Positions 1,333-19,417 of a stretch of 19,417 nt of DNA are shown here, in pieces. The stretch lies in the UHGV virus genome UHGV-1532611. One strand, 5' to 3'. Both the position numbers and the translations under genes were made by a program. Source of the stretch: a virus. The notes under the pieces were generated by a model. That model did not search any database. It was not told the origin of the DNA and saw only the letters and a list, made by a program, of their open reading frames with translations. How positions within the stretch are numbered: the stretch's first letter is position 1; each line of letters opens with the position of its first letter.

Positions 1333-2879
1333 GTATTAGAGATTTTTTCACATTTAAAAAAGCAGAACCGAAAACACGTAAACAGAAACAGAAACTGGTA
1401 ATTGATAACGAGCAAGCATATGGCTCACAGTTACAGCGTATTCTTGGTCCTCGAACTGACCGTTTAGATGGCGACTTTCAAGAGAACCTGATTACGACTG
1501 CAACGATTAATAACGAGATTCGAACTTATGCCGATGGCATTCGTAATATGTCTCGAACTCTTTCGATTAATACACCAGTTGGTAAACGTGCTGTTCAATA
1601 TCAAGTTGATAACGTTATCGGTGAAGGTATTAACCCACAATTGCGTATTCTGGGAACAAACGGAAAGCCAAGCAAGAAACTGAACTCTATGATTATGGAC
1701 CAGTTCAGCTATTGGTCAAGTTCAGCAAAACGTTTCAGTAAAAATGAAAGAATGAACTGGCGCAGATTTCAAGAACTCGTTGAACGTTCAAGATTTGTTG
1801 ACGGCGAGGTTTTTATTCGTATTCACGAATCTGATACTGAATTTAAGCTTGAAATTATCGAAGCTTCACGCTGTAAATTTGGCGACAGAGAAACCTCCGA
1901 CAACGGTTATGTTCTTGATGGTATCGAATATAATAACGATGATGTTCCAGTTCGTTACTGGTTTAACACAATAAGCAAAGCAACACAGACTTCATCTGGT
2001 AAATCTGAAGGTATCGACGCTGAAAATATTATTCACTATTACAGAGAATTGTTCCCTGATCAACGCAGAGGCATTCCTGAATGTGTAGCGAATATTGATG
2101 TTATGAACCAATATGATGCTTTCACAAAAGCAACGTTGATTCAGAAACGCGCCGCAGCAAGCTCTATGGGTTTCATCACTCAAGACAAAGACGGTCAAGA
2201 TAATATCGAAATTGATAGCGATAACGAAGGCATTGAAGAATCTCCTGATGTTATTCAAAACTTTGAATCAGGGACAATTCATAAACTTCCTGCTGGTTAC
2301 GATATAAAGCAGTTTAGCTCTACTCAGGGCGGTGACGACTTTATGAACTTCACGAATCGTCTGGAAGACCTGCTTGCTATGGGTTACGGTTTTTACAAAC
2401 AAGGTTGGAAAGGTGACACAGCAAATATTAACTATTCTGCTGCCCGCTTCGGTGATCTTGCACAACGCGTAATGTTTAAATCAGTTCAGCGTAATATTAA
2501 AGAACAGGTTTTTGATGTTATTTTTGAACGTTGGTTACAATGGTCAATTATCAGAGAAACCGTTAATTTGAAAATGACAACTATTCCTTCAGTTCTTCGT
2601 CAGACTGTTTGGACATATCCTCAATGGCAAAGTATCGACCCAATTAAAGATACTCAGAAGGATATTTTTGATGTTGAAAACGGATTCAAATCTGCTTCTG
2701 ATATTATTATTGCTCGCGGTGAAGACCCGGATATTGTATTTGCTCAGGTTGAACAAGAAAGAACTCGTTATGTTCCGAAATACGATAATCAAATTAAAGT
2801 TGCTGCTGCACCTGCTGCATTAACGGCTGATGCTCAAGTGGAAGTTGCTGAAATTAATTCGGATAACTCGGTGGAATAA
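1329..2879 (+). CDS. Portal protein (lambda gpB family)
   Basis: 516 aa, immediately after the terminase/W-position genes. Several blocks align in pattern with lambda gpB as remembered (for example RFQELVERSRFVDGEVFIRI and GDDFMNFTNRLEDLLAMGYGF). The size fits the family. Confidence 0.85.
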   Translation: MSIRDFFTFKKAEPKTRKQKQKLVIDNEQAYGSQLQRILGPRTDRLDGDFQENLITTATINNEIRTYADGIRNMSRTLSINTPVGKRAVQYQVDNVIGEGINPQLRILGTNGKPSKKLNSMIMDQFSYWSSSAKRFSKNERMNWRRFQELVERSRFVDGEVFIRIHESDTEFKLEIIEASRCKFGDRETSDNGYVLDGIEYNNDDVPVRYWFNTISKATQTSSGKSEGIDAENIIHYYRELFPDQRRGIPECVANIDVMNQYDAFTKATLIQKRAAASSMGFITQDKDGQDNIEIDSDNEGIEESPDVIQNFESGTIHKLPAGYDIKQFSSTQGGDDFMNFTNRLEDLLAMGYGFYKQGWKGDTANINYSAARFGDLAQRVMFKSVQRNIKEQVFDVIFERWLQWSIIRETVNLKMTTIPSVLRQTVWTYPQWQSIDPIKDTQKDIFDVENGFKSASDIIIARGEDPDIVFAQVEQERTRYVPKYDNQIKVAAAPAALTADAQVEVAEINSDNSVE

Positions 2880-2880
2880 C

Positions 2881-2890
2881 ACTAAATACA
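2881..2890 (+). promoter_or_regulatory. Promoter-like motif actaaataca upstream of the capsid fusion gene
   Basis: Member of the recurrent intergenic motif family; the same 10-mer recurs inside the gene at 3427-3436. Confidence 0.3.
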
Positions 2891-2904
2891 TTCAGAAAAA
2901 CAAA

Positions 2905-2922
2905 GAGCGTCGAAAGACGCTC
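2905..2922 (+). promoter_or_regulatory. Stable GNRA hairpin in the 5' leader of the capsid fusion gene (not a terminator)
   Basis: gagcgtc-gaaa-gacgctc: perfect 7-bp stem with a GAAA loop, 16 nt upstream of ATG 2939, with no following U-tract. Confidence 0.35.
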
Positions 2923-2938
2923 CAACAGAGGACTGGTA

Positions 2939-4843
2939 ATGCTAAAACTTAAGCGCGATTACACAGTTCAGGGTATTGATTCTGTTGATGGTGTTTTTGA
3001 AATTGCGTTCAGTTCTGAAACTCCTGTTGAAAGACAGATTCAGGATGAATACGGTCAAAACATTACTGTTAATGAAATTCTCGTTCATGACGGCTCACAT
3101 AACGCTGACTTGACCCGAATTAATAACGGTGCTGCTTTGCTGTTTAACCATGATTTTGATAAACACTTGGGAATCGTTATTCCTGATTCTGTTCGAATCG
3201 ATGAAGACAAAATAGGACGAGCAAAAGTCCAATTCAGTCAACACGGTGAATTAGCTAAAGAAATCGGTGCAAAAGTTCAAGAAGGAACAATTAGTAAAAT
3301 CTCTTTCGGATATGACATTAATGAATATCACTTAGAAGGCGACAATCTTATTGTTACGAAATGGGCACCATATGAAATTTCTTTCGTCACTGTTCCTGCT
3401 GACGATAAAGTCGGTTTGGGAAGACTACTAAATACAGATACAACAAACAAACTTAACAAAGGTACTCGAATGAAACGTATTGATGAAATGACTAAAGATG
3501 AACTGGCAGAAATGACTATCGATGAAATTGAAATGCTGTCCGATGAAGATCGTGCAAAGCGTGAAGAAATTCTGGAAGAAGTAGTCGTTGAAAATGAAAA
3601 CGCTGGTGATTCTGCTGTTGAAAAAACTGATGACGCTCCTGCTGCTGTTCCTGCTGGTGACGAACTGACAGAAGAAGAACGCGAAGAAGAAGCGGAAGAA
3701 ATTCTTGAAATCGCACAACGCTACAAAGTAGCACAGAAAGACGTTGCAAGCGCTATCGCTAAAGGCATGACCGCACGTCAATTCAAACGCTCTATTAAAC
3801 CTAATAAATCTGCAACGGTGATTCGCAACATGACTAAAGATACTAAACAAACTCTGGAAAATAAATTCGACCTTGGCGATGCTGTTCGCTCTATGATGAA
3901 TGGTAAAGCTGTTCGCGGTGCTGCTGCTGAATATACTCAAGAAATGTCCCGTAAGCGTCTGATGCGCGGTGCTAACGTTTCTCAAGGTATCTATATGCCA
4001 GTTAGTGCTCTGCAAGGCAAACGCGCTATTAACACTGTATCAACTGTTTCCGCAGTACAAGAAACTGTTCAGCGTTATGATTCATTCGTTGAAATGCTGT
4101 TGAAAGACACTGTTGCTGATAAGCTGGGAGTTAACTTCCTGACTGGTCTGACTACTCCGATTTCTGTTCCTAAGCAGACAAAATCAAGTGTTGATGCATT
4201 CGGTTTCGTTGATGAAAACGGTGAATCTCCAGAAGGCGAAAGCAAATTCGAAAACATTCAGTTTATGCCTAAGACATTTACTGGTGGTAACCCGATTTCT
4301 CGTCAAGCTCTGTTGACTCTGCCTAATCTGGGTGCGTTCATTTCTGACCATATCGTGAATTTCTCACGCGCTAAACTGGAAGGTCTGATGTTCGGTTCTA
4401 TTACCGACGCAAAAGCTCCTCAGTCTATCGTTGCTCAGTTAGTAGCAAAACAGATGGGAATGACCTACAAAGAATTCGTTGTTGAAGCTGCTAAAGCTAA
4501 AGGCGACGGCGTAGCAATGGACAAGTTCAAATATTTGATGGCTGCTGCTCTTGAAGGTGATTTGAAAACCACTCTGCGTGACGCTGGTGTTGCTGGTTAT
4601 ATCATCGACGACCTGAACAAACTGGGCGGACATGATGTTATCGGTTCCGGTCTTGTTAAAGAAGGTCAGGTTATCTCTGGTGACTTCTCTGCTGTAACCG
4701 TAGCTGAGTGGGAAGGTCTTGCTCTTGACCTAGACGACACAACTTACCGTAACAAAGGCGCTATCGTTCCTCGCGTTTGGGCTGATATCGATTGGAAAGT
4801 TTGTGCTGATGATCGTCTGTTCCTGCACGAAAAACAAGCCTAA
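2939..4843 (+). CDS. Prohead protease - scaffold (delta-like) - major capsid protein fusion
   Basis: 634-aa continuous ORF. Residues 1-170 have the HK97-type prohead protease (S78/U35) pattern (NHDFDKHLG, ISFGYD, EISFVTVPADD). Residues about 175-290 are acidic and helical (EEEREEEAEEILE), like a scaffold or delta domain. The C-terminal ~350 aa are of major-capsid size and composition. A terminator follows the gene. Confidence 0.8.
   Translation: MLKLKRDYTVQGIDSVDGVFEIAFSSETPVERQIQDEYGQNITVNEILVHDGSHNADLTRINNGAALLFNHDFDKHLGIVIPDSVRIDEDKIGRAKVQFSQHGELAKEIGAKVQEGTISKISFGYDINEYHLEGDNLIVTKWAPYEISFVTVPADDKVGLGRLLNTDTTNKLNKGTRMKRIDEMTKDELAEMTIDEIEMLSDEDRAKREEILEEVVVENENAGDSAVEKTDDAPAAVPAGDELTEEEREEEAEEILEIAQRYKVAQKDVASAIAKGMTARQFKRSIKPNKSATVIRNMTKDTKQTLENKFDLGDAVRSMMNGKAVRGAAAEYTQEMSRKRLMRGANVSQGIYMPVSALQGKRAINTVSTVSAVQETVQRYDSFVEMLLKDTVADKLGVNFLTGLTTPISVPKQTKSSVDAFGFVDENGESPEGESKFENIQFMPKTFTGGNPISRQALLTLPNLGAFISDHIVNFSRAKLEGLMFGSITDAKAPQSIVAQLVAKQMGMTYKEFVVEAAKAKGDGVAMDKFKYLMAAALEGDLKTTLRDAGVAGYIIDDLNKLGGHDVIGSGLVKEGQVISGDFSAVTVAEWEGLALDLDDTTYRNKGAIVPRVWADIDWKVCADDRLFLHEKQA
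3427..3436 (+). promoter_or_regulatory. Internal copy of actaaataca, 33 nt upstream of the in-frame ATG at 3470
   Basis: Identical 10-mer to 2881-2890; followed by an SD-like aaaggta (3457-3463) and ATG 3470 (Met178 of the fusion ORF). Confidence 0.3.
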
Positions 4844-4844
4844 G

Positions 4845-4874
4845 AAAAGCAAAAGCAAAAGCGAAAGCGAAAGC
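4845..4874 (+). repeat. Tandem hexanucleotide repeat (RAAAGC x5) just after the capsid gene stop
   Basis: aaaagc aaaagc aaaagc gaaagc gaaagc, starting 2 nt after the TAA at 4841-4843 and ending 20 nt before the terminator. Confidence 0.6.
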
Positions 4875-4894
4875 TGAAACTGCTGAATAATCAG

Positions 4895-4920
4895 AGGACT
4901 CCTTCGGGAGTCCTTTTTTC
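4895..4920 (+). terminator. Intrinsic terminator after the capsid gene
   Basis: 8-bp stem aggactcc / ggagtcct around a UUCG tetraloop, followed by a run of six T. Confidence 0.75.
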
Positions 4921-4929
4921 GTTTCTGGA

Positions 4930-4940
4930 CTAAATATAAT
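4930..4940 (+). promoter_or_regulatory. Promoter-like motif ctaaatataat upstream of the 4955 gene
   Basis: Immediately downstream of the capsid terminator; also contains a TATAAT hexamer. Confidence 0.3.
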
Positions 4941-4954
4941 AAAAAGGAGACAAC

Positions 4955-5251
4955 ATGATTTTTCCATATTCAGAAAAACAAAAACAGTCTTTCTTAACTC
5001 GTTTCGGACAGAAAATCAAAATTAACGATTCTGATGAACTCGGTATTGTTGAAATTGAGATTAACAACGATAACGGACAAGTAAGCGAGACAATCTATAT
5101 AACCGCTGATATCAATAAAGTTAAGCAAGAAGATGAAGTTCTATTAAACGAGATTCTGTATACCATTGCGTATCTTGTTAATGATGGTTCAGGACTTGCT
5201 AATTGTTATCTGGCATTTAAAGGCGAACAGGAGACATCATTCTATGACTAA
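4955..5251 (+). CDS. Hypothetical protein at the head-tail connector / head completion position
   Basis: 98-aa ORF with a strong SD (aaaaaggaga, 4941-4950). Lies between the capsid gene and the U-like gene. Function assigned from position only. Confidence 0.55.
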   Translation: MIFPYSEKQKQSFLTRFGQKIKINDSDELGIVEIEINNDNGQVSETIYITADINKVKQEDEVLLNEILYTIAYLVNDGSGLANCYLAFKGEQETSFYD

Positions 5252-5642
5252 TCTGCCACGTTTAGGAATTAAACGCGCTCTGGAAGAAATAATCGTTAAA
5301 GAACTTAATCTGAAATACGTCAAAAACGCTTTCACAACTGGTGTTAAAGAACCTGTTCAAGTAATGATTCCAGGAATGACAGAAGAATATACGCGAATCG
5401 GTTTGCAATCGAAACTTGCAAGTGTTCTTAGTATTACGATTGATATTTTCTCAGAGAAAAGCGAAACAGGCGTTCACAAAGCCGTTTACGACTTAATTTC
5501 TATTAAAGCTAATCATGAAAAACTTATCCCATTTAAAATCGATAAGATTTATCCAAGTTCGAGCTTCACTGATTATGATAGTGAAGCATCAAATGGTCAT
5601 GTTAGCGCACAAATAATTTTAACTTTCGAATACTTAATGTGA
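5244..5642 (+). CDS. Tail terminator protein (lambda gpU-like)
   Basis: Start chosen at ATG 5244 (SD aggaga at 5229-5234), which overlaps the stop of the upstream gene (ATGACTAA); the ORF track begins this frame at 5166. The product is 132 aa, like gpU (131 aa), and its C-terminus ILTFEYLM resembles gpU's VITYEM. Confidence 0.65.
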   Translation: MTNLPRLGIKRALEEIIVKELNLKYVKNAFTTGVKEPVQVMIPGMTEEYTRIGLQSKLASVLSITIDIFSEKSETGVHKAVYDLISIKANHEKLIPFKIDKIYPSSSFTDYDSEASNGHVSAQIILTFEYLM

Positions 5643-5649
5643 GACTAAA

Positions 5650-6675
5650 ATGACAAACGATATTTTTGTAGGAAATAACGTCAGAGTTTCAGTTAATCCG
5701 CTAATCGTTGAAATCCCAGGATATAACGACCCAGGTTATGTAAGCACTGATAAACTGGCTGCATTCCCTGTTATCGGATTTAGAAAAGAAGTTCAGACAC
5801 TAGAAGATTACAGAACCGATTTCACAACGAAACTTTCAGGTGACGTAACAATTAACGACACTTCAATAAGCTTATTTGAAGACAGTTCTGACCCAGTTTA
5901 TCAGTTGCTTGATGAAGCTCTTATGGAAAAGAAACTCCTTAGATTCAGAAGTCTTTATGTTATCGATGGAGAAACAAAGAAAGATAATGATGCTGGTCTT
6001 TATCATATTTTTAATGCTTATGTAACGAAGAAAGAAACATCAGGTTCGGCTAACTCAGTCGTTACAACAACTTTTAATCTTTCTCCTGATGGTCAGTTGT
6101 TTACAGGTTTTGCTGAATTCTCAGTTCCGTTAAACGTTGGCGATTATGGTATTGGTGCTGGTACAGAAGAAATCGCAGGCGTTAAAGACTTAGGATTATT
6201 AACTGGTAACAGATGTGTAACAGTCGATGCAACAAACAGCGATAACCCTTATAACTCTGGCACGTCTGCTATGGCTATTCAGCATCCTGATGGTCAAGGT
6301 TGGGAGCTTATTGGTTCGTCAGTCGGTAATCCAAGCATCAGAATCAGAAACAAACAACAAAGCGGTGAAACTGTTACTGAATCTCCGTGGGTCAAAGTCT
6401 ATACAGAACTTGAACGTCCAACTCCTGAAGATATTAATGCTTTGCCTATTACTGGTGGAGAACTCAAAGGATCTTTGACTATTCAGGAATATCTGAACGT
6501 TCGTAAAAAGATTTCTGCGCCACAAGGTGAAATCTTGGCTCTAAATAGTAATGAAATTAACTCAACTTCTGTCAAGGTCAAAGGCAAAGAAGTCTATTCT
6601 CCAAGTAATAAACCAACGCCATTAGAGATTAATTGTGTAGCGTTAGGAGAAACCTTAGACGCAGGAGTATTTTAA
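5650..6675 (+). CDS. Major tail (tube) protein, gpV-like N-domain plus a ~180-aa C-terminal extension
   Basis: Directly follows the U-like gene as V does in lambda. The N-terminal ~160 aa are paralogous to the 9833-10309 product (AFP..G..EV.T......KL.G......D shared). The C-terminal half is Ser/Thr/Gly-rich, consistent with an Ig-like decoration domain as in gpV. Confidence 0.65.
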   Translation: MTNDIFVGNNVRVSVNPLIVEIPGYNDPGYVSTDKLAAFPVIGFRKEVQTLEDYRTDFTTKLSGDVTINDTSISLFEDSSDPVYQLLDEALMEKKLLRFRSLYVIDGETKKDNDAGLYHIFNAYVTKKETSGSANSVVTTTFNLSPDGQLFTGFAEFSVPLNVGDYGIGAGTEEIAGVKDLGLLTGNRCVTVDATNSDNPYNSGTSAMAIQHPDGQGWELIGSSVGNPSIRIRNKQQSGETVTESPWVKVYTELERPTPEDINALPITGGELKGSLTIQEYLNVRKKISAPQGEILALNSNEINSTSVKVKGKEVYSPSNKPTPLEINCVALGETLDAGVF

Positions 6676-6687
6676 CGGATAAAGAAA

Positions 6688-9600
6688 ATGGCAAATAATA
6701 AAGTTAAACATTATAGAACAGACGTCGCCGGAAGAAAGCCAGAAGCGAAAAACATGCTTGATGGTGAAATCGCTATTAACTTAGCCGATAAAAAGATTTT
6801 TACTAAATTCGGTGACGCTGTTATTAACATCGGTAATGGTGCTGATGCTGTTGTTGAAGGCGGTCAGACCTTTACTGGAAAAATTAAAGCAAGTGATATT
6901 GAATCCGATTCTAATCTGACTTTAAAAAATCTTGATAAAAGCGATATTGTTTTTGCTGATGAACACGACAAAGCAAAAGCACGTATTAGTTCTCCTGCTC
7001 AGACAGACTCTAAAGGTGAACTTCGTGTTACGGTAGCGAAAGGAAAAGGTACAGGAGAGAGTTCTGACTTCGTGCTTAACGGTAATGGTCAGTTATCTTT
7101 GCCTGCTGCTCCTGTTGCTCCTGATAGCGCTACGCGTAAAGATTACGTTGATTCTGAAATCAGCAAAGTTCAAACAGGTTCAAGTGCTGACCTGACGAAA
7201 CTCGAACAGAAAGTTGATGCTAACGACGCTGCTATTAACACTCGCGTTGATAATCTGAATTCAAAAGTTGACCAGAACGACACGGCTATTAATACGAAAG
7301 TTGATGCGAATAAAGCTGATGCTGACGAAAAGATTAAAGCAGTTAATGACCGTTTGACTGTTGATAATCAGACTCTGAAAGACATGATTGACACCAAAGT
7401 TAATAAAGCTGGCGACACGATGACTGGCGACTTAACTGTTCCTTCTGTTCATGCTGCTGGTAATGTATACGCAGGAACTTTGAAAGTTACACCTGCTGGT
7501 AATAACGGTGATGTTCTGAGTATTGAAAACCACGGCAGAACTTCAAAGACTATTCATCAAATTGCATACGCAACGGATACGGATGATCGACTGTTATTTC
7601 GTCGTGATGCTAACGAAGGAACCGACGCATTAGATCTAATGACCATGACTTGGGGAAAAACAGGCAGAGGAATGTCAATTGATATTTCAGGTCAAGCTAG
7701 AATCACTGATGCAGTAACAACTCCTTTAATGTCCGTTGCAAGCAACTTTGCCGTTGGAAATTCACTGGGTTTAAACTCTATCGCGATTGGTGATTCCGAC
7801 ACTGGTTTTAAATGGAGAGAAGACGGATGGTTAAACTTCTATTCAAATAACGTTGTAACAGCTTCTATTGCAGGATCTGAAAACTACTTTAATAGAAAAA
7901 CTCATTTCCGTTTCAGAAGTGATGATGGTGATTCGAATCTGATGGCTCCTGAAGGTTATTCATTAATTAATATCGATACGACAACCGACGGTAATAACAT
8001 TGGTGACGCCACGACTTATTTCGGATTAGTTAATGGTGGAAAATATAATCATTATCTGAGAGGTTCAGGCAGAACTTATATTGATACTAAAGAAGGTCTT
8101 GGTGTTGCTGGCCCTGCAAGTTTCTATAAAACGATTTATAATAATAAGCCTTACGGATGGTATGACTCGGAAAGCTTACCCGACTGGAACACTCCTGAGC
8201 AACAATCAAATCATTTAAGAAAAGTTAGAGCCGTTGGTGCTGGATCCATTTATCATGAGTTGGCAATGGCTAATCATCCTGACGATAGGCTGGATAACTC
8301 TATATGTTGGTTTCATGGTGATACTCCTGAATATTGGATGGGTTCATTAAACACCAATGGTCGATTGAATCTTGCAAGTGGTGTTTCTGTCAACGGCGAA
8401 TCTAATGCTATTCAGTTGAATATTCCTGCGTCGAATCAGGCAAGTTATATGTCTGGCAATATGGACGGTCGCAATAATACCTGGATTCTTGGCAAGACAA
8501 GTGAGAATCTCGATATTGTCTGGTCTCAGAATATGAGAAATGATTTCTCTACGTCATCTGGTGTTACTCTTAGAACTAACGGATCCGTGACGGTTCAGAC
8601 TGGTACTAATACCGCGATGGATATTCAGCATAATACAATTCAAATTGATGGTGCAAGATGGGCAGCAACCAATGATCATGCTTACGCTAATCAATGGAGA
8701 CAAAATGCTCCTATGCAGATTAACTTCGGAGCAGTTGCTGGTGAAAGTGATTATTATCCCGGATATTCGATGAACTCTGTTTCCGTAGGACACGGATTCT
8801 CTACTGTTGTTGAATTAGGAACTATTAGAGGACCAGCTAATTCATGGGGCAAAGGAATTCTTCGTGTTGGGACGAAAGAAGAATCGACGTTCGGTAAAAT
8901 GGCTAATTATGAATTTGATATCGATGGTCGTTTTGCTGTTCCTGGAAAAATTAATACTCCTTCTGTTGAAACAAATCGTTTAACAAGTTTTGGTATTAAC
9001 ACGGACAACGTACTAGGTGGAAACTCAATCGCGTTTGGTGATAACGATACAGGTATTCGACAAGTTACGGACGGAAACTTAAGCATTTTTACTAATGGTA
9101 TTCAAATCGCAACCTTTAACACAGCTGGTTTGACAATTGATCGGTCAATTACGATTAACACCCATAATGAGTCTCGCGGTGTTTATGTTGGAAACGTTAG
9201 AACCGGGGCAAGCAATGCGATGATTCAAGGTGTCGTTGACGGTTGGCCGCAGTGGTCAGCGTGGCGTGATCGTCCTGCGGGAATGATTGTTGAAGCTCAG
9301 ACTCGTGATAAATGTATTAATATCTGGAAACATGTTCATTGGGGCACAGAATACGGTGCTGCGATGGACATTTATAATCCGGGTAGTTCTGCTCCCGAGG
9401 CTGCACTTCACATTGGTGGTGCAGACTATCTATTCCTCGGTAATGGAACAGCAAATGCGATCCAATGGGTTAGCACTTCTGATAAACGTCTGAAATCGAA
9501 CTTTGAAGAAATTGAAAACGCAGTTGATAAAGTCGAGAAACTTACTGGTTACGTATACGATAAGAAATCTGATTTAGTCAAAACTGAATATTCATTCGAA

Positions 9601-9771
9601 GTTCGTGAAGCAGGTATTATTGCTCAAGAACTGAAAGAAGTATTACCAGAAGCTGTTAGTTCTTTCGGACCTGACGAAATTCTTGGTGTTAACTCTGCTG
9701 CTGTAAACGCGTTGCTGGTTAATGCTATCAAGGAATTAAGTGCTCGCGTTAAAGAACTTGAAGCTAAATAA
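6688..9771 (+). CDS. Tail fiber protein with C-terminal S74-type intramolecular chaperone (auto-cleaving) domain
   Basis: 1027 aa. Contains the KAGDTMTGDLTV phage-fiber repeat motif, a helical repeat region (DANDAAINTRVDNLNSKVDQNDTAINTKVD), two copies of an LG.NSIA.GD.DTG motif, and the C-terminal SDKRLKS...GIIAQEL...AIKEL domain that closely resembles the T5 pb1 / K1F endosialidase chaperone domain. Confidence 0.88.
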   Translation: MANNKVKHYRTDVAGRKPEAKNMLDGEIAINLADKKIFTKFGDAVINIGNGADAVVEGGQTFTGKIKASDIESDSNLTLKNLDKSDIVFADEHDKAKARISSPAQTDSKGELRVTVAKGKGTGESSDFVLNGNGQLSLPAAPVAPDSATRKDYVDSEISKVQTGSSADLTKLEQKVDANDAAINTRVDNLNSKVDQNDTAINTKVDANKADADEKIKAVNDRLTVDNQTLKDMIDTKVNKAGDTMTGDLTVPSVHAAGNVYAGTLKVTPAGNNGDVLSIENHGRTSKTIHQIAYATDTDDRLLFRRDANEGTDALDLMTMTWGKTGRGMSIDISGQARITDAVTTPLMSVASNFAVGNSLGLNSIAIGDSDTGFKWREDGWLNFYSNNVVTASIAGSENYFNRKTHFRFRSDDGDSNLMAPEGYSLINIDTTTDGNNIGDATTYFGLVNGGKYNHYLRGSGRTYIDTKEGLGVAGPASFYKTIYNNKPYGWYDSESLPDWNTPEQQSNHLRKVRAVGAGSIYHELAMANHPDDRLDNSICWFHGDTPEYWMGSLNTNGRLNLASGVSVNGESNAIQLNIPASNQASYMSGNMDGRNNTWILGKTSENLDIVWSQNMRNDFSTSSGVTLRTNGSVTVQTGTNTAMDIQHNTIQIDGARWAATNDHAYANQWRQNAPMQINFGAVAGESDYYPGYSMNSVSVGHGFSTVVELGTIRGPANSWGKGILRVGTKEESTFGKMANYEFDIDGRFAVPGKINTPSVETNRLTSFGINTDNVLGGNSIAFGDNDTGIRQVTDGNLSIFTNGIQIATFNTAGLTIDRSITINTHNESRGVYVGNVRTGASNAMIQGVVDGWPQWSAWRDRPAGMIVEAQTRDKCINIWKHVHWGTEYGAAMDIYNPGSSAPEAALHIGGADYLFLGNGTANAIQWVSTSDKRLKSNFEEIENAVDKVEKLTGYVYDKKSDLVKTEYSFEVREAGIIAQELKEVLPEAVSSFGPDEILGVNSAAVNALLVNAIKELSARVKELEAK
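9478..9768 (+). other. Region of the tail fiber gene encoding the S74 intramolecular chaperone domain (aa 931-1027)
   Basis: The SDKRLK motif begins at codon 9478-9480, followed by the conserved GxxAQELKEVLPE and AIKEL...ELEAK segments; released by autocleavage in known homologs. Confidence 0.75.
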
Positions 9772-10366: not shown

Positions 10367-10783
10367 ATGTTTAAATTTCAAGCTGACTTATCAAAATTAC
10401 TTAACCGCTATATCAATCAGCAACACGTTTTCGGTCAAAACGACTGTAATATCCTTGTTGCTGAATATATCGACCTTGTTTGTGCTACTGAATACACAGA
10501 CAAATTAAAAGACAAATACACGAGTATTCCTGAAGGTCTCAAGATTTGCAAAGAGCTAACTGGTTTTAATAACGTTCTCGAAGCGTGTGAAACGCATCTT
10601 GAGAAATCAGAAACTATAGAAACAGGCTCGGTTATCTTAATTAAGAAAAAACATAAAAACCGTGTCTATTACGTTGCATCTATCGTTTTTAATAATAGAG
10701 CATTAGTTGAACATGAAAATAAATATCAACTGATAAACGTCAACGATTTTAATTTTGAATTAATTTTTAACAGGAGAAAATAA
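10367..10783 (+). CDS. NlpC/P60-like tail tip protein (gpK C-terminal domain homolog, no MPN/JAB domain)
   Basis: 138 aa. HVFGQNDCNILVAEY matches the Cys motif of the gpK NlpC/P60 domain (HGVTDCYTLF) and GSVILIKKKHKNRVYYVASIVFNNRALVEH matches GDVLL...NHAAIY.GDGELLHH. Stop overlaps the start of the J-like gene (TAATG). Confidence 0.5.
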   Translation: MFKFQADLSKLLNRYINQQHVFGQNDCNILVAEYIDLVCATEYTDKLKDKYTSIPEGLKICKELTGFNNVLEACETHLEKSETIETGSVILIKKKHKNRVYYVASIVFNNRALVEHENKYQLINVNDFNFELIFNRRK

Positions 10784-13700
10784 TGGCTATTGTAGCTATT
10801 GGTGCAATTATCGCAGGTGCTTCCGCGGCTGCTGCTGCTTACGCTGCGGGTGCTGCTCTTGCTTTGGCAATTGGTATTGGTGTCGCTGTTGCTGCTGTTT
10901 CTGCTTTGATGTCAACTCAGATGGCGCAGAACGTTCCCCGATTTAACAGCACAGACACAGCAACGACATTAGGAACAACGTCAGATCCATCAAGTGTTAT
11001 TCCTATTATCTATGGTGAACAGCGTACAGGTACGATTAACGTTTGGAAAGCTGTTGGCGTTGATACGACATATTTGGTTCAGATCTTTGCAATCTGTGAA
11101 GGTGAAGTTGATAGCTTCAAAAACCTTTATATGGATAATCAGAAAATCTTACTTGATGGCGTTTATAAAGACGGTGTTCTTCCGAAAGGTTCAATCGCTG
11201 CTGAATATCAGCAATATGTTGAAGTTGAATTCTCAACTGGTAAGCCATACGGTCACGTTTTTACTCTTGCTCAGAAATATCTAGGAAATTCAGATGCTGG
11301 CTGGCCTGATTCTGCTACTGGTAATAACATCGCTGCTTGTTGTGTTGTTATGCGCAAACGTAACTCAGACCTTCAAAACCAAGCTGATATCCTGCAACCT
11401 AACAGTCAAGTATCTGTTGACGTTAGAGGACGTTTGATTACAGATCTGAACACAGGAGAACGCGTTTCCTCGAACAACGGTCCGAGTCAGATTGTTGATT
11501 ATCTAACAAATGATAGATACGGTCTTGGAATTCAGATTGATAAAATCGACCTTGATAGTTTTAAAGAAGCTGCTCGATATGCAAAACTGAACAGTTTATT
11601 TTCTGATGGTGCAACTGACCCGAACGGTTCATTCAAAGAAAACTTAACTCAGCTTGCAGGTGCATTTAACGGTATTATCACAGAGACTTTCGGTAAAGTA
11701 ACATGCAGAATCGATGGACCTGATGTTGTTCAATATGACTTCAACGAAGATAATATTAACGCTGGTACTGTTAGCTTAAACGATGGCGGTTCTGAGAATT
11801 ATTACAATACTCTGAACGTGAAATATCAAGATCCGTCGATTGACTATTCTGACCAAGTTCTGCGTTATCCGTCTGACGTAACAAATGATGGAACAATCGC
11901 GAAAGATAAACGTATTATCGCTAAAGATATCAGTTACAGATTCGTGAAATCAAAATCTCAGTTGGATAAAATTGCTTCAATCGAACGTAACAAATCTCTG
12001 TTAAAGCAAGTTATTAGTTTTTCAACTGCTGATGCTTATACCGCACAGGTCTGGGATGTTATCAGAGTTAATTTCTCTGAACTGGAACTTGTGAATTCAT
12101 TATGGCGTATTACTAATATCGATCGTTCGATGAATAAAGGTGCTGCTGGTATCGTTACTATTACTGCTTCTGAATATATCGAAGAAGTTTATACCAATCT
12201 TGACTACGCGAAAGACCCTGATAACACAGGAAGCAACATTCCTAATAAATCTGTTCTGATTGCTCCTAAGAATCTGACAGTTAAAGCAGTTGCTGAAACA
12301 GCTTTAGGAAGAACTCTGAAAGTTCAATGGACGTCTGAACCTGATTATAATCGCGCAGGTTATTATATTCAGTATAGTCTTGCTGGTAAGAACTCTTGGA
12401 TTCAAGCAGGTTTCACATCAGGCGATTATTTCTTGATTATGAGTCTTGACCCTAATCAGAAATTTGATATTCGTGTTTGTGCTTCTGGTGTTGTGTATCG
12501 TTCAGATTGGGTTTATGTCAATAACGTTAACCCTGAGGTTATGTATAACTTACCAGTCGTTACAGGACTGCACCTAGTGAACGCAGTTGAAAATCAATAC
12601 ACCACTAACAAGACTCAATTTGAATTCGCCTGGGACGACCAGAGCGCACAGAAATTCTATGTTGACGACACGTTACAGACATTCGGTGAAGTTTTTCAAT
12701 ATTACGAAATCAAAATTGAAGGTCAGCGTCCTGTAATTTACAAGACTAAAGACTTAGGTTTTGTATATGACTTTAATATGAACTTGGGTAATGGTCTGAG
12801 TCGTGAATTGAAAGTTTCTGTTACTGCATACGGTCACGCTGGTATGAAGTCAGATCCTGCTGTTATTACTGTTAAGAACAATCAAGCTCCTGCTATTCAA
12901 GGTTTCACAGCTTCGAATGGTCCTGGAATGCTGATGTGCTCTTGGAATGACCCACGCGATAATAAGCCTGAAGTTCCTGACTTCAAAGGCACAATCGTTC
13001 ATATTGCGAAAGACCAGAGTTTTAATGAAATTGTTCACGTTTATTCAAGTTCAAGTCCGTTCTTAGATAATTTTCCATTAGAAGATGGTCAATTCTATGT
13101 TCGTTCAGCTTGGTATGACGTATTCGGACAAGACCAGATTACTTGGTCAGAATCGAAGTTTATCGATATGAAATGGGATATTCCGTGGACTGACGATATG
13201 AAAGAACAGTTAAACGATTTGCTTGATTTGGATAAACGTGTTGATGGTGCTATCGATGAAGCATTAGACCTCGCTAACAAATACACTGATACGAAAGTTA
13301 CAGCATCCGAGCAAAAAGTTACTACTGAATTAAATCAGACTATCACGACGAAAAACACCGAACTTCATACTCAGATTACTAATGAAACTAATGGCGCTAT
13401 CAATCAGGCTATCAGTATTCAAGAATCTAACTTTGATGGAAAACTTAACTCGGCTATTACGAAAGTTGAAAAAACTCAAGCTGATGATAGACAAGCAACC
13501 GCAAGTTCAATTAATCAATTGAAAGCTGAAACAAACACAGCTATTGCAACAGTTAGTCAAGAATCAAAAGCAAGCGTTGACGACTTAACAGGAACGATTA
13601 ATAGCAAATGGGCAGTTCAGACTAATGCCGACGGTGTTGTTGCTGGTATCAGTATGCTGGCTAATAAGAATCCTGACGGTTCAAAACAGTCTAGTATTGT

Positions 13701-14472
13701 TTTTAACGCTGATAAAATCGCTATAACGAATAACAATACTCCTGCGGGTGCTGTTGCTCCGTTTATGGTCGCTGATAACAGAGTTTATATGGATTCTGCA
13801 ATGATTCGTAATGCTTCTATCGGTTCAGCACAGATTGCAGATGCTTCTATTAACAACGCTAAGATTCAAAACGGTGCTATTAACAACGCGAAGATTGAAA
13901 ACGGTGCGATTACTACTGCGAAAATTGGTAATGCTCAGATCGGTTCAGCACAGATTGCTTATGAAATATCTTCTGATAACTGGTTCCCTTCCGGTGGTAC
14001 TCAAGGTTGGACAATCAGAAAAGACGGTTGGGCTTCTTTCCAAAACGTTAATATCAGAGGTAACATTCAAGCAGATTCTGGTTATTTCGCAGGTGAAATC
14101 AGAGGCGGTTCAGGTTATTTCACAGGAACTGTATACGCTGACAGAATTGAAGGTGACGTTATCAAAATGGGTCATATAGATCCGTGGACAACAGTTCATA
14201 TTCCTGCTGTTAACTGGAACAGAGTAATTTCTATTCCAAACCTTTCGATTTCAGGCAGAACTTATTCCGGTGGTGCTTGGGGCTACGGAACTGCATGGAT
14301 TAATATGTCGAACGGTCAAGAAATCGTAAGAACAGTTACCAGTGCAATGAGTGGTTCAAACGGTGGTACAGGCATTATCTATGCGGGACAAGCTGTTGAT
14401 TTGAGTTACGGTGCTGACTTGAATCATGCGACCGCAGCAAGAGCAGTTTACTTTATCAGTAAACAACAATAA
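10783..14472 (+). CDS. Tail tip / host specificity protein (gpJ-like) with gpI-like N-terminal segment
   Basis: 1229 aa. The N-terminal Gly/Ala-rich hydrophobic stretch followed by VIPIIYGEQRTGTINV resembles the gpI C-terminus (VLPVLYGEMRVGSRVV). IVDYLTNDRYGLG matches the gpJ LTHPRYGMG region. Two FN3-like segments, a helical region and NAKIxNGAI-type repeats are present, and WAVQTNADGVVAGISM...FNADKIAI resembles gpJ [20 protein letters not shown]...VAANRIAF. The C-terminal ~170 aa are the likely receptor-binding domain. Confidence 0.85.
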   Translation: MAIVAIGAIIAGASAAAAAYAAGAALALAIGIGVAVAAVSALMSTQMAQNVPRFNSTDTATTLGTTSDPSSVIPIIYGEQRTGTINVWKAVGVDTTYLVQIFAICEGEVDSFKNLYMDNQKILLDGVYKDGVLPKGSIAAEYQQYVEVEFSTGKPYGHVFTLAQKYLGNSDAGWPDSATGNNIAACCVVMRKRNSDLQNQADILQPNSQVSVDVRGRLITDLNTGERVSSNNGPSQIVDYLTNDRYGLGIQIDKIDLDSFKEAARYAKLNSLFSDGATDPNGSFKENLTQLAGAFNGIITETFGKVTCRIDGPDVVQYDFNEDNINAGTVSLNDGGSENYYNTLNVKYQDPSIDYSDQVLRYPSDVTNDGTIAKDKRIIAKDISYRFVKSKSQLDKIASIERNKSLLKQVISFSTADAYTAQVWDVIRVNFSELELVNSLWRITNIDRSMNKGAAGIVTITASEYIEEVYTNLDYAKDPDNTGSNIPNKSVLIAPKNLTVKAVAETALGRTLKVQWTSEPDYNRAGYYIQYSLAGKNSWIQAGFTSGDYFLIMSLDPNQKFDIRVCASGVVYRSDWVYVNNVNPEVMYNLPVVTGLHLVNAVENQYTTNKTQFEFAWDDQSAQKFYVDDTLQTFGEVFQYYEIKIEGQRPVIYKTKDLGFVYDFNMNLGNGLSRELKVSVTAYGHAGMKSDPAVITVKNNQAPAIQGFTASNGPGMLMCSWNDPRDNKPEVPDFKGTIVHIAKDQSFNEIVHVYSSSSPFLDNFPLEDGQFYVRSAWYDVFGQDQITWSESKFIDMKWDIPWTDDMKEQLNDLLDLDKRVDGAIDEALDLANKYTDTKVTASEQKVTTELNQTITTKNTELHTQITNETNGAINQAISIQESNFDGKLNSAITKVEKTQADDRQATASSINQLKAETNTAIATVSQESKASVDDLTGTINSKWAVQTNADGVVAGISMLANKNPDGSKQSSIVFNADKIAITNNNTPAGAVAPFMVADNRVYMDSAMIRNASIGSAQIADASINNAKIQNGAINNAKIENGAITTAKIGNAQIGSAQIAYEISSDNWFPSGGTQGWTIRKDGWASFQNVNIRGNIQADSGYFAGEIRGGSGYFTGTVYADRIEGDVIKMGHIDPWTTVHIPAVNWNRVISIPNLSISGRTYSGGAWGYGTAWINMSNGQEIVRTVTSAMSGSNGGTGIIYAGQAVDLSYGADLNHATAARAVYFISKQQ

Positions 14473-14517: not shown

Positions 14518-14802
14518 ATGGTCGATATAGCACTGATCATTTCCATCTTGGGTGCTCTAGGAGGTTTCTTGGCTTGGGTTTATGCCGAAATTAAATCAAA
14601 CAATGAAAAACGAATTGACCTTGAGAAACGTTTCTCAGACATCGAAAAAAGCATAGCCGTTAATGACGCAAAAGATGCTTCGCTTATAAGCGATATAACA
14701 CGACAACAGGATGAATTTCGAGAGGTCAAATCTGATTTGAAGAATTTAGAAGGAAGAACAGCAAAGCTAGATATCGACCTAGCAGTTCTAAGAGGAAAAT
14801 GA
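14518..14802 (+). CDS. Small membrane-anchored coiled-coil protein (one N-terminal TM helix); function unknown
   Basis: 94 aa with two SD-like elements upstream (aaggagg 14489-14495, aaggag 14505-14510). IALIISILGALGGFLAWVYA is a predicted TM helix, followed by a charged helical region. Stop overlaps the next start (ATGA). No cysteine, so not a lipoprotein. Confidence 0.6.
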   Translation: MVDIALIISILGALGGFLAWVYAEIKSNNEKRIDLEKRFSDIEKSIAVNDAKDASLISDITRQQDEFREVKSDLKNLEGRTAKLDIDLAVLRGK

Positions 14803-15275
14803 AAAGAAAAGAGATTCCGATTTATAAGCAAGAACTCTTTCAAAAGCAAAAAGGTCTTTGTGCTTTAACTGGCATAAAGATTCATGAAGTTAATAAAGCC
14901 CATCTTGACCATGACCATATATTAACAGGCTCTAACGCAGGCAGATGCAGAGGATTATTAATCGCTCAAGCAAACGTCCTAGAGGGCAGAATAAAACATC
15001 AGTTTAAACGTTCGGGTCTCGATGGGAAAATTGACTACATCGAGTTTTTGAAGAATCTTGTTCAGTATCTTGAAAAAGACTACTCAGACAATCCTACGCA
15101 TCCACAACTTATTCCTGATTTAAAGAAGGCGTTCTCTCGAAAAAATCTTTCTGAGATGAAAGCTATTACAGGTTCAAACCTTAAAACGAAAAAGGAGCTT
15201 GAAAAAGTCTACTCAAACCAAATAAAGGTGAAATATGAAAATGAAATATCTCCAAGCATTGGCAAAACACGCTAA
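14799..15275 (+). CDS. T4 endonuclease VII (gp49)-like junction-resolving / HNH-fold nuclease
   Basis: 158 aa (T4 endo VII is 157 aa). HLDHDH, GRCRGLL, N..EG and KHQFKRSGL.G..DYIEFL.NL..YL..DYS.N..HP are collinear with T4 endo VII as remembered. The catalytic Asp/His/His/Asn/Glu equivalents are present. Confidence 0.8.
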   Translation: MKRKEIPIYKQELFQKQKGLCALTGIKIHEVNKAHLDHDHILTGSNAGRCRGLLIAQANVLEGRIKHQFKRSGLDGKIDYIEFLKNLVQYLEKDYSDNPTHPQLIPDLKKAFSRKNLSEMKAITGSNLKTKKELEKVYSNQIKVKYENEISPSIGKTR

Positions 15276-16716: not shown

Positions 16717-17079
16717 ATGCTACGTCGCGGATTATCTAACGATGAAATTCAACAGATGTCCGTGATGATGTATTACGAACTATGGTTTTTCGACTCGTTT
16801 ATTGAACCTCAAGGTCCTGTCTATAACGATTTCTATCAAGCACGTTTGGTCCACACTATCGAAGCTAATAATCCTAATCTTACAAAAGAATATAGGAAAA
16901 AGCTCAACATGAAAGATCACCTGCTTATTAAAGATTCTGTGTTTAAGTCTCAAGAGGAAATCGAAAAAGAGAAAGAGCAACAGGAGCTTAAACGCAAGAA
17001 AGCTGTTGAATCGATGTTCGACCCTGCTCTGTTAGACAAAGTTAGACTGAAACAACAAAAAAAGGTGAATAATGGCTAA
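16717..17079 (+). CDS. Tail assembly chaperone T-like segment, probably made as a G-T fusion by -1 frameshift
   Basis: The frame is open from 16624 and overlaps the 3' end of the G-like ORF in the -1 frame. ATG 16717 has no SD. Stop overlaps the tape measure start. Coordinates are those of the ATG-initiated ORF; the fusion product would begin at 16373. Confidence 0.5.
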   Translation: MLRRGLSNDEIQQMSVMMYYELWFFDSFIEPQGPVYNDFYQARLVHTIEANNPNLTKEYRKKLNMKDHLLIKDSVFKSQEEIEKEKEQQELKRKKAVESMFDPALLDKVRLKQQKKVNNG

Positions 17080-19417
17080 ATCACGTTATGACGTCGAGAT
17101 TAACGGAGATAACAAAGGCCTATCAATTTCTATTGACAAGTCCATGAAGAAACTGAATGAACTCGATTCAGTAGCTAATGGACTTTTTAGTAATATGACA
17201 GGACCGTTGAATAATCTCAACAACGGAATCTCAGGTATTGCAGGAATGTCCAAGGGTATGCAAGCTCTGGGGATTGCAGGAATGGCAGCAGGTGCAGGTG
17301 TAGCTGTTCTTAATACCGCGTTAGAAAAAACGAGAGAACTCAATCAACTCTCTACATCAACTGGTCTTTCAGTTGAATATCTGCAACAACTTAAAAATGA
17401 ATTTCGCGAAACAGGTATGGAGATTGACCGTTTCGGAGATTTAAACAAAGACACATTAGATAAACTTGGCGATTCATTCAGAGAAGGTCATGGCGGTATT
17501 GCAGACGACCTCAAAGAATGGGGTATTGGTCTTGAACAGTACACACAATACGTCAACGATGCCCAAGGCGGTATTAAAGCGCTTGTTCAGACTTATTATG
17601 ACCTGAAAGCTGCTGGTGCAAGTCAAGCTGAAATCGTGAACGGAATGGAGTCAATGGCTTCTGATGCTTCACATTTGATTTCAACTCTTGAAAAATACGG
17701 TTCAACTCAAGACGCATTAAACGCTATTAACAATCGTTCTGTTGATATCACAAACGAAACAGCAAAAGAATATAAAGAATTCGACGAAAACATGAAAACG
17801 TTAACCGTCAATCTGGATAATCTAACTGTTAACGTTATGAGTCCGTTAGTTAAGAAAATGAACGACCTGTTCGAAATTGCTAATAAAGATTGGACAGCAA
17901 GTAACTTTTTAGACTTCATGGGAACATTAAGCACGTTGCGTCCTGATGCTGCTCTTTCTGATTGGGCTGCCGAAGCGACTGTTAACAAAATGGGCGAATG
18001 GATGCCTAATGCGGGTTTTGCTAAACGTAGAAAAGCAATTGCAGATGAAGAAAAGTTTCAGAAAGATATTGCCGCAGCAAGAATCAAAGCTGATGAAAAT
18101 CTTCGTTTACAGCAAGCAAATGCTAAAACTGCCGCAGATCTGAAAAGAAAAAAAGATGCATTAGCTGCCGAAGACGCTAAGAAAGAAGCTGAAAAAGCTA
18201 AACGCGAAGCTGACAAAATAGCAAGAGAAGCTAAAGCTGCTTATGATAAGATGATGCAAGAGCGTCAGACAGCGTTACAGAATCTTTCCAGTCTTGATGC
18301 TGCAATTCTCAGTCAAGAAGGCAGAACTATTTCTAGTCAAGTCAGTAAAGTTAGAGAAGCTGTTGAAACAATCGACGAACTTGAAAAGAAAGGAATAATC
18401 AGCGCTACACAGGCAAATCAACGTCGTAAAATGCTTTTTGAGAATTCAAACAAAGAATTCAAACAAACTCTTATGGCAAGTCCTGAAGAAATCGGTGCTA
18501 TTACGTCGAGTCTTGAAATCGTATATCAACAACAACTTGAACAACTCGAAGCTAAGAAAGCCCAATCGCTTATCGGTCAGAAAGAATATAATTCTCAGTT
18601 AGAAGCTATTCAGAAAGACCATCAGCAACGTCTTGAAGCAATTAAAGCGACTGCTGGCGATGGTAATATGTCTAATCTTAAAAATCTTGATGCTATCGGT
18701 TTTGCAACTGATGAAGAAAAAATGGCTATTCAACAGAAAATGTTGGAAGAACAATTTCAGAAGATGCAAGAACAGAACCAAAAGCTATATGACGGACAAT
18801 TGATTTCTTATGAAGATTATCTCAAACAGAAACAGCGTCTTGAGCAAGCTTATGCGGTTAAATCGAAAGCAATTACTTTCACTGAGATTCAGACAAAACT
18901 CCAGATGTATAACGGTTTTGCTTCTGGTATGGGTGCAGTTATAGCCGGTATTTCTGGTGAAAACTCTAAAGCTGCTCAAGCAATGTTTGCAGTTGAAAAA
19001 GGAACAGCAATCGCAAGCGGTATGTTAAACGCTTATGAATCAGCAACTGCTTCAATGGCAAAATATCCTGGTCCTTTAGGTTACGCTCTGGCTGCTTCAA
19101 GTTATGCAAGAGTTATCGGACAAGTCATGCAGATGAAATCAGTGAATCTTACTGGTATGGCTCACGATGGTATTTCTAATGTTCCAAGAGAAGGGACATG
19201 GCTGCTTGATGGTGGCGAACGTGTCGTTGATGAAAGAACAAACGGCGACTTGAAAGACTTCTTAGATAATCAGAAAACAGGAGGCGAAACAAAAATCGAC
19301 GCAAGTATTCACGTTTCAGGGAATGTTACTGATCAGCGTTGGTTTGCTGAACAATTAAAACGTCAGCAACAGAACATCGCGGCTATTGTTCAAGACAGCA
19401 ACAGACGCAAGATGTAA
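17072..19417 (+). CDS. Tail tape measure protein
   Basis: 781 aa, largely helical and Ala/Gln/Lys/Glu-rich, with Gly/Ala-rich hydrophobic segments near both ends (GIAGMAAGAGVAVL; GMGAVIAGISG), directly after the G/T-like chaperone pair. Using the lambda rule of about 0.15 nm per residue this predicts a tail of roughly 115-120 nm. Confidence 0.8.
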   Translation: MAKSRYDVEINGDNKGLSISIDKSMKKLNELDSVANGLFSNMTGPLNNLNNGISGIAGMSKGMQALGIAGMAAGAGVAVLNTALEKTRELNQLSTSTGLSVEYLQQLKNEFRETGMEIDRFGDLNKDTLDKLGDSFREGHGGIADDLKEWGIGLEQYTQYVNDAQGGIKALVQTYYDLKAAGASQAEIVNGMESMASDASHLISTLEKYGSTQDALNAINNRSVDITNETAKEYKEFDENMKTLTVNLDNLTVNVMSPLVKKMNDLFEIANKDWTASNFLDFMGTLSTLRPDAALSDWAAEATVNKMGEWMPNAGFAKRRKAIADEEKFQKDIAAARIKADENLRLQQANAKTAADLKRKKDALAAEDAKKEAEKAKREADKIAREAKAAYDKMMQERQTALQNLSSLDAAILSQEGRTISSQVSKVREAVETIDELEKKGIISATQANQRRKMLFENSNKEFKQTLMASPEEIGAITSSLEIVYQQQLEQLEAKKAQSLIGQKEYNSQLEAIQKDHQQRLEAIKATAGDGNMSNLKNLDAIGFATDEEKMAIQQKMLEEQFQKMQEQNQKLYDGQLISYEDYLKQKQRLEQAYAVKSKAITFTEIQTKLQMYNGFASGMGAVIAGISGENSKAAQAMFAVEKGTAIASGMLNAYESATASMAKYPGPLGYALAASSYARVIGQVMQMKSVNLTGMAHDGISNVPREGTWLLDGGERVVDERTNGDLKDFLDNQKTGGETKIDASIHVSGNVTDQRWFAEQLKRQQQNIAAIVQDSNRRKM

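Follow-up and report, generated by a model that had tools for sequence, protein, structure and literature searches.

The 19,417-nucleotide (nt) stretch of the virus genome UHGV-1532611 that we analysed (hereafter the window) contains the gene of a lambda-J-like central tail fibre, which carries a cluster of short direct and tandem DNA repeats upstream of its receptor-binding end. We consider it probable that these repeats are the nucleotide image of a structural repeat of the protein, an array of pentads of the form I-x-x-A-x, within which units are turned over and crossovers take place. Comparison of relatives shows that the units of the array undergo duplication, deletion and homogenisation, and that its length changes in exact in-frame steps of 30 nt, presumably by slipped mispairing or unequal homologous recombination, because neighbouring units are alike at the DNA level. 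The same comparison shows that the end pentads (IGSAQ/IGNAQ-IA), being conserved among diverged phages, serve as homology patches for crossovers that join the shaft to the receptor-binding end of another phage.

The twelve pentads of the array read MDSAM IRNAS IGSAQ IADAS INNAK IQNGA INNAK IENGA ITTAK IGNAQ IGSAQ IAYEI. In 27 diverse homologues their I and A positions vary little or not at all, and two pentad types alternate to give the decapeptide I-x-[DN]-[AG]-[SA]-I-x-[NT]-A-K; the true unit is therefore a decapeptide, or 30 nt. An initial annotation of the window had reported a perfect 20-base-pair repeat, ATCGGTTCAGCACAGATTGC, at 13819-13838 and 13939-13958, with IGSAQIA encoded by either copy and with tandem units encoding NAKIQNGAI, NAKIENGAI and TAKIGNAQI between them. 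Exactly two copies are indeed present on the + strand, both read as IGSAQIA in the frame of the fibre gene, and all three peptides occur in its translation. The repeat region given in that annotation, 13800-13960, is real, and only its extent has to be widened slightly, to 13789-13968. No further copy with up to 3 mismatches exists in the window, and 200 dinucleotide shuffles yielded 0 matches. Similarity around the 20-mers reaches 48 nt at 81% (13796-13843 versus 13916-13963), and Tandem Repeats Finder places 3.2 copies of a period-30 unit at 13832-13927 (80% matches, score 99).

How might the two 20-mers have come about? Deleting the DNA between them would take out 120 nt and leave MDSAM IRNAS IGSAQ IAYEI, which is the four-pentad core of solved homologues (about 4 pentads in the F2 pyocin fibre, in T1 gp33 and in gp24 of 23gd; about 2 in lambda J). 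We envision that the 20-mers represent the two homologous ends of an eight-pentad expansion of such a core of about four pentads. A relative with 84% protein identity (L003) retains both copies, with one synonymous difference inside the 20 nt (ATT versus ATC, first codon) and a second at the base just past them.

Unit turnover and crossovers in the array

The initial annotation had proposed that related phages be compared for gain or loss of repeat units, and this comparison came out positive. Array lengths among about 190 full-length relatives are 8, 10 or 12 pentads, the steps always being of two. A Citrobacter freundii prophage (L092, GCA_033099035.1) differs from the window gene by 3 single-nucleotide polymorphisms in 3690 nt and by one clean 30-nt deletion, whose gap lies within 13868-13897 and fuses the adjacent units at 13849-13878 and 13879-13908 (units A and B in Table 1). 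Another close relative (L093) has 3 point changes, of which G13897C turns unit B into the reading of unit A. An independent 30-nt deletion, between exact 15-nt repeats, distinguishes L094 from L004 in a separate lineage, and L003 has one unit fewer than the window. The units themselves have a traceable history: unit 5-6 of the window is a paralogue of unit 7-8, since it matches unit 7-8 of L002, L004 and L005 at 27, 27 and 24 of 30 positions, respectively, and their unit 5-6 at only 23, 20 and 19. L004 possesses its own lineage-specific 27/30 unit pair elsewhere in the array, and L002 contains a perfect 15-nt tandem encoding IGNAQ IGNAQ. Taken together, the changes in L092, L093, L094 and L003, the paralogy of units and the tandem in L002 show ongoing duplication, deletion and conversion of 30-nt units.

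Junctions at which receptor-binding ends change lie in the array in three lineage pairs, and in this respect the suggestion of the initial annotation that the repeats could drive recombination and domain swapping is borne out. The window gene and L003 are about 96% identical (93-100% per 60-nt window) from 13198 into the array, where the tract stops at 13839 or, with the 30-nt gap placed differently, at 13883; beyond it, identity drops to 66% and then to about 35% in a different receptor-binding domain. Compared with L002, the gene is about 80% identical up to 13950 and 98.3% identical from 13951 (9 differences in 519 nt, 13951-14469). Of these two junctions, the one with L003 coincides with or closely follows the first 20-mer, the one with L002 lies inside the second, and the array interior is close to neither relative. 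Given these two tracts, the window gene is composed of an L003-like shaft and an L002-like distal end. In a Klebsiella pair (L096 and L097), the junction of a replaced patch falls in pentad 7, and the arrays have 10 versus 8 pentads. The same receptor-binding domain is also found paired with 10- and with 12-pentad arrays (P0278 versus P0001). A strict scan for high-identity DNA tracts in 14 relatives returned tracts only for the window with L002 and with L003. Several protein-level 'junctions' (for example that of P0001 and P0006 at amino acid (aa) 1041) were considered as recent exchanges and rejected, as they reflect conservation instead.

Layout and predicted fold of the fibre

The Pfam hidden Markov model of PF09327 (Phage_Tail_Tip, the J central straight fibre domain) matches aa 926-1021 with 83 bits (cutoff 22), and all 120 homologues listed that include this region carry the domain. 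The phrog_31 family, 'central tail fiber J', matches aa 209-1121 (E 5.7e-61), PF13550 (Phage-tail_3) stays below its cutoff of 23 with 19.8 bits, and an NCBIfam search gave no match. The PF09327 core, which ends where the pentads begin, aligns to residues 1074-1174 of the F2 pyocin fibre and to gp24 of 23gd. It would be the counterpart of the non-switching beta-prism strands of the lambda central straight fibre and the F-pyocin central fibre protein (PMC12874032, PMC11101478). Ahead of it, a coiled-coil-like segment with weak coiled-coil Pfam matches (13183-13557, aa ~801-925) occupies the place of an alpha-helical segment in lambda and, in the F7 pyocin fibre, of a coiled coil that undergoes a switch into a beta-prism. 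The far N-terminus (aa 1-48, 10783-10926) is hydrophobic and rich in Ala, Gly and Ile, MAIVAIGAIIAGASAAAAAYAAGAALALAIGIGVAVAAVSALM, and is nearly invariant across 27 homologues. Nothing like it exists in lambda J; possibly a membrane-inserting segment has been fused on here, similar to the hydrophobic helices found in lambda gpI or F-pyocin THIP.

The initial annotation had placed the repeats just upstream of a presumed C-terminal receptor-binding domain. They do lie upstream of it, but the variable domain begins about 60 aa later, at about aa 1125, rather than immediately. The intervening stretch is a conserved module (SDNW...GW.I.K.G.A.F.NV, followed by 11-residue repeats) that is homologous to lambda J residues ~933-1001. 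The latter repeats form a second family directly after the pentads (~14056-14154), with units of the form G-x-[IV]-x-A-x-x-G-x-F-x that read GNIQADSGYFA GEIRGGSGYFT GTVYADRIEGD in the window; of the two Klebsiella relatives L096 and L097, one has a unit more than the other, so that copy number varies here too. Past aa 1121, identity to relatives drops to 10-30%, in the receptor-binding domain that is hypervariable among them.

An AlphaFold2 (AF2) monomer model of aa 940-1229 has a mean predicted local distance difference test score (pLDDT) of 81.5. It places strands at aa 941-975 and 994-1003, ahead of the array, and a confident all-beta sandwich from about aa 1127 (pLDDT ~90). The array itself is modelled with pLDDT 81-87, no strand or bridge assignment and no intrachain strand pairing. 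Foldseek aligns the model with lambda gpJ (8xcj_F, E 4.8e-13; 8xck_F, E 4.8e-10) and with 9wca_F (E 1e-9), and the A8 gpJ fibre is matched too; the TM-scores are low (~0.3) because the chain is elongated. The C-terminal domain matches jelly rolls of the TNF/C1q-like kind. In the F7 pyocin fibre, a coiled coil, a beta-prism, a 'short intertwined beta-helix' and a narrower beta-prism follow one another (PMC12874032). From this layout and the position of the pentads, we infer that the three chains of the trimer most likely intertwine in the array to form a beta-helix stalk. Through such a stalk, the distal module and the receptor-binding domain would be attached to the beta-prism part of the fibre, and each decapeptide would lengthen the stalk by roughly 1 nm.

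Table 1. Positions of the fibre gene and its parts in the window
Feature	Position	Strand	Basis
lambda-J-like central tail fibre / tail tip protein gene, 1229 aa	10783..14472	+	open reading frame list, translation, PF09327, phrog_31
PF09327 core, beta-strand region before array, aa 926-1002	13558..13788	+	Pfam, AF2, alignment
Array of 12 pentads I-x-x-A-x, aa 1003-1062	13789..13968	+	translation, conservation in family
20-mer copy 1, IGSAQIA (pentad 3 and start of pentad 4)	13819..13838	+	exact match
30-nt unit A, INNAK IQNGA, paralogous copy of unit B	13849..13878	+	27/30 identity to unit B
30-nt unit B, INNAK IENGA; A or B deleted in L092	13879..13908	+	L092 gap
20-mer copy 2, IGSAQIA (pentad 11 and start of pentad 12)	13939..13958	+	exact match
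Conserved post-array module, aa 1063-1124	13969..14154	+	phmmer to 8xcj, 8iyk, 23gd; conservation profile
C-terminal receptor-binding domain, predicted beta-sandwich, aa ~1125-1229	14155..14469	+	identity drop, AF2, Foldseek
Alternate-frame open reading frame, 122 aa, not a gene	13811..14179	+	frame +1 relative to J

Alternative accounts of the repeats

Several observations weigh against the reading that the array is a site of unit turnover and crossovers and forms a trimeric stalk. The four-pentad variant that recombination between the 20-mers would generate does not occur among the roughly 190 relatives, so that recombination between the two 20-mers themselves stays hypothetical; the exact identity of the 20-mers could stem from retained ancestry plus selection. 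The 30-nt deletions come from draft assemblies, a collapse of two 30-nt repeats with 3 mismatches being unlikely. Junctions occur elsewhere in the distal third of the gene, too, among them in the coiled-coil region and where the receptor-binding domain starts, and only 2 of 8 DNA-level endpoints in comparisons with the window fall in the array (4.9% of the gene). The gene does have junctions at conserved internal motifs, as repeat-mediated mosaic fibre genes do, with a modest enrichment: 7 of 62 distinct protein-level tract endpoints lie in aa 1001-1060 (3 of 62 bins) where about 3 are expected, the pairs being non-independent and tract ends biased to conserved segments. Statistically, support for a recombination hotspot in the array is weak to moderate. 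As to the fold, the trimeric model builds on a monomer prediction and on an approximate residue mapping to the F7 and F2 pyocins. SU10 gp16 (7z4b), the one chain in the PDB that has a long array, had to be discarded as experimental evidence since the region is AlphaFold-modelled, and the C-terminus of T1 gp33 is not resolved in its structure.

It is conceivable that the repeat exists purely at the protein level, the DNA identity being a coincidence of codon usage combined with shared ancestry, and that it has no special role in recombination or length. Over all in-register pentad pairs, identical codons are indeed barely more frequent than expected (65 observed versus 56.5), and both the missing 120-nt deletion variant and the junctions outside the array would fit. 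Given the same heptapeptide, however, the probability that all six degenerate codons of the 20-mer are identical as well is 0.005-0.007 with the codon usage of the window; at about 0.005, the DNA identity exceeds what a protein repeat alone predicts. Such an account also leaves unexplained two independent clean 30-nt deletions in near-identical relatives, lineage-specific 27/30 adjacent units that are paralogous rather than orthologous, and three DNA-level junctions inside the array, and we hold it to be unlikely. At the other extreme, the array might be programmed for hypervariation that switches fibre specificity often, either as a slipped-strand contingency locus or as the target of a diversity-generating retroelement. 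The location of tandem units near the receptor-binding end and the observed length polymorphism might be taken in this sense, yet only about 2 length variants occur among about 60 near-identical full-length sequences, which together with the following points makes this scenario highly improbable. A phase-variable locus was rejected because there are 3.2 copies of a 30-nt unit at 80% identity, the units being 80-90% alike, and because every change is in frame. A retroelement target was rejected because none of the 18 open reading frames of the window scanned with Pfam contains a reverse transcriptase domain and because the 48-nt copies differ by mismatches of several types rather than at adenines specifically. 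A third alternative concerns the fold: each chain might form its own four-sided, Rfr-type beta-helix, as do the pentapeptide-repeat proteins Qnr and MfpA. Read as A-x-I-x-x, the motif resembles A(D/N)LXX; phmmer finds weak matches between the window protein and designed pentapeptide-repeat proteins (E 0.004-0.09); and long-array relatives pass the threshold of PF13599 (Pentapeptide_4, cutoff 38; P0125 with 92.5 bits, P0146 with 46.9 bits) and match the solved pentapeptide-repeat proteins Np275/276 and All3740 as well as DotG. Against this, the window protein itself has no match to PF00805 or PF13599 at E up to 1, a length step of 2 pentads would correspond to half an Rfr coil, and the F7 pyocin fibre has a trimeric beta structure at the homologous position. 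The AF2 array contains no intrachain ladder, and the top 50 Foldseek matches include no pentapeptide-repeat protein; this makes a monomeric pentapeptide-repeat fold unlikely, a monomer model not being decisive. On balance, we consider an Rfr-type helix in each chain quite unlikely.

Returning to the intertwined stalk, a bolder extension can be formulated, to which we attach only tentative belief. When 1.84 billion representative proteins were searched with aa 926-1120, 6604 matched at E up to 1e-3, mostly via the pentads alone, and the arrays in the top 150 of these matches comprise 4 to 59 pentads. Possibly the array is a widespread, length-tunable intertwined beta-helix module of phage fibres, present with 4 to 59 pentads in thousands of protein families and perhaps a trimeric relative of the pentapeptide-repeat fold. 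In J-like fibres its length, adjusted in 30-nt steps, would set the reach of the receptor-binding domain and the relay of a signal to the fold-switching shaft. A corollary would be that copy number is adaptive and tuned to how thick the surface layer of the host is.

The initial annotation had dismissed the alternate-frame open reading frame at 13811-14179 as a spurious product of the repeats. We agree that it is spurious and reject it as a gene: its frame is interrupted by stop codons in five relatives (L003, L005, L009, L014 and L016), and it is absent from RefSeq annotation. Its origin is not specific to the repeats, as an alternate-frame open run of at least 123 codons arises in 69% of synonymous-codon shuffles of the J-like gene.

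Host element, neighbouring genes and known systems

A protein 100% identical to the J-like fibre is encoded in Citrobacter chromosomes and in E. coli, where it is annotated as 'phage tail tip fiber protein', and its 90% cluster spans E. coli, Citrobacter and Enterobacter. Two E. coli chromosomes, those of MS 115-1 (L095) and 2021CK-01361, match the last 1290 nt of the gene (13183-14472) at 100% identity, and in MS 115-1 the element adjoins ldtB at its end. Since it ends beside ldtB in a chromosome, the element is a prophage, and one that crosses genus boundaries (E. coli, Citrobacter and Enterobacter). Among 50,697 phage records, megablast found no match to the J-like gene and only short or 76% matches to the whole window. 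The nearest deposited phage, Escherichia phage DCP80, has 44.6% aa identity, too far for DNA comparison. Scans of genome contigs returned no relative in one case and only two Atlantibacter loci (42-43% identity) in another. The J homologue of a further contig (L010, IMGVR_UViG_3300011906_000012) has a tblastn match covering 4540 nt (1501-6040) with a longest open reading frame of only 828 aa, which suggests that an insertion or frameshift interrupts it.

Genes for a terminase, a portal, a protease-capsid fusion, a Peptidase_S74 tail fibre, a DUF6950 protein and an endonuclease VII are also present in the window. The fusion is a single 634-aa open reading frame (2939-4843) that joins a Peptidase_S78 prohead protease domain to an HK97-type capsid domain, and directly after its stop codon follows a hexanucleotide tandem repeat, AAAAGC x5 (4845-4874). 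The large gene upstream of the fibre gene (6688-9771) encodes not a tape measure but a side tail fibre whose C-terminus is a Peptidase_S74 chaperone domain. L003 has an additional Gp38-like adhesin gene (1150-1953 of its sequence) after the side tail fibre gene; the side-fibre module is therefore mosaic too. All close relatives have an endonuclease VII gene (14799-15275 in the window) directly after the fibre gene. A large open reading frame of at least 781 aa without a Pfam match (17072-19417) comes last in the window, after a weak tail-assembly-chaperone-like gene. It may be the tape measure, in which case gene order in the integrated prophage would be unusual.

What does the array offer in practice? 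It combines a natural splice point that tolerates in-frame changes with a length-adjustable spacer in a J-like central fibre, and could be useful for building chimeric receptor-binding proteins; since the prophage gene is present in E. coli MS 115-1, experiments are accessible. Our results should help the annotation of PF09327 proteins. They provide a clean natural example of repeat-unit turnover (3 polymorphisms and one 30-nt deletion) and an example of exchange between shaft and receptor-binding domain in temperate phages of Enterobacteriaceae. Fibre mosaicism and repeat-mediated change are already well established, and nothing is overturned: this is ordinary fibre-gene evolution, unusually cleanly documented.

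Among known systems, lambda gpJ (8iyk, 8xcj, 8xck; PMC11101478) has the same C-terminal architecture, with FNIII domains, an alpha-helical segment, a central straight fibre and a receptor-binding domain. PF09327 is shared, the post-array module aligns to J residues 933-1001, and the receptor-binding beta-sandwich is similar (Foldseek E 4.8e-13), whereas identity is low (15-20%), about 2 pentads stand against the 12 of the window protein, and the hydrophobic Ala/Gly-rich N-terminal segment is lacking. The central fibre protein of F-type pyocins (F7, PMC12874032; F2, PDB 25vf) shares the order of parts, from the coiled coil through the beta-prism strands and the short intertwined beta-helix to the narrower beta-prism, and the F2 fibre aligns over PF09327 into the first pentads (IKNAL IQDGA IDNAK IGNVI). 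It differs in having about 4 pentads and no lambda-like receptor-binding domain, using the accessory proteins PyoF11 and PyoF12 instead, and the mapping of its beta-helix onto the pentads is approximate. With pentapeptide-repeat proteins (PF00805, PF13599; Qnr, MfpA, Np275/276) the array has in common a five-residue period, a small residue at i-2, a hydrophobic residue at i, and weak but real sequence matches. The window array differs from them in belonging to a presumably trimeric fibre, in being predicted to lack intrachain coils and in remaining under the Pfam thresholds.

At the level of evolution, T-even gp37/gp38 and P2-like fibres are classical examples of mosaic fibre genes, of crossovers at conserved motifs within them and of changes in host range through small internal duplications. 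In the T-even gp37/gp38 adhesins, conserved motifs reportedly act as recombination sites, and small internal duplications are said to broaden host range. The likeness consists in short conserved repeats within the gene that act as crossover points for swapping specificity domains, and in the in-frame duplication or deletion of small units; the two systems differ in motif (His boxes and Gly-rich motifs in the T-even case), fold and phage type. For T4, the effect on host range has been established experimentally, whereas the window array is known here from sequences. At the level of structure, the triple-stranded beta-helices in fibres and spikes of phages, such as T4 gp5, T4 gp12 and the stalks of endosialidases, are intertwined trimers built from short repeats, and their length scales with repeat number. 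Their repeats are of about 8 residues or irregular, whereas the five-residue unit of the window array would give a much narrower prism.

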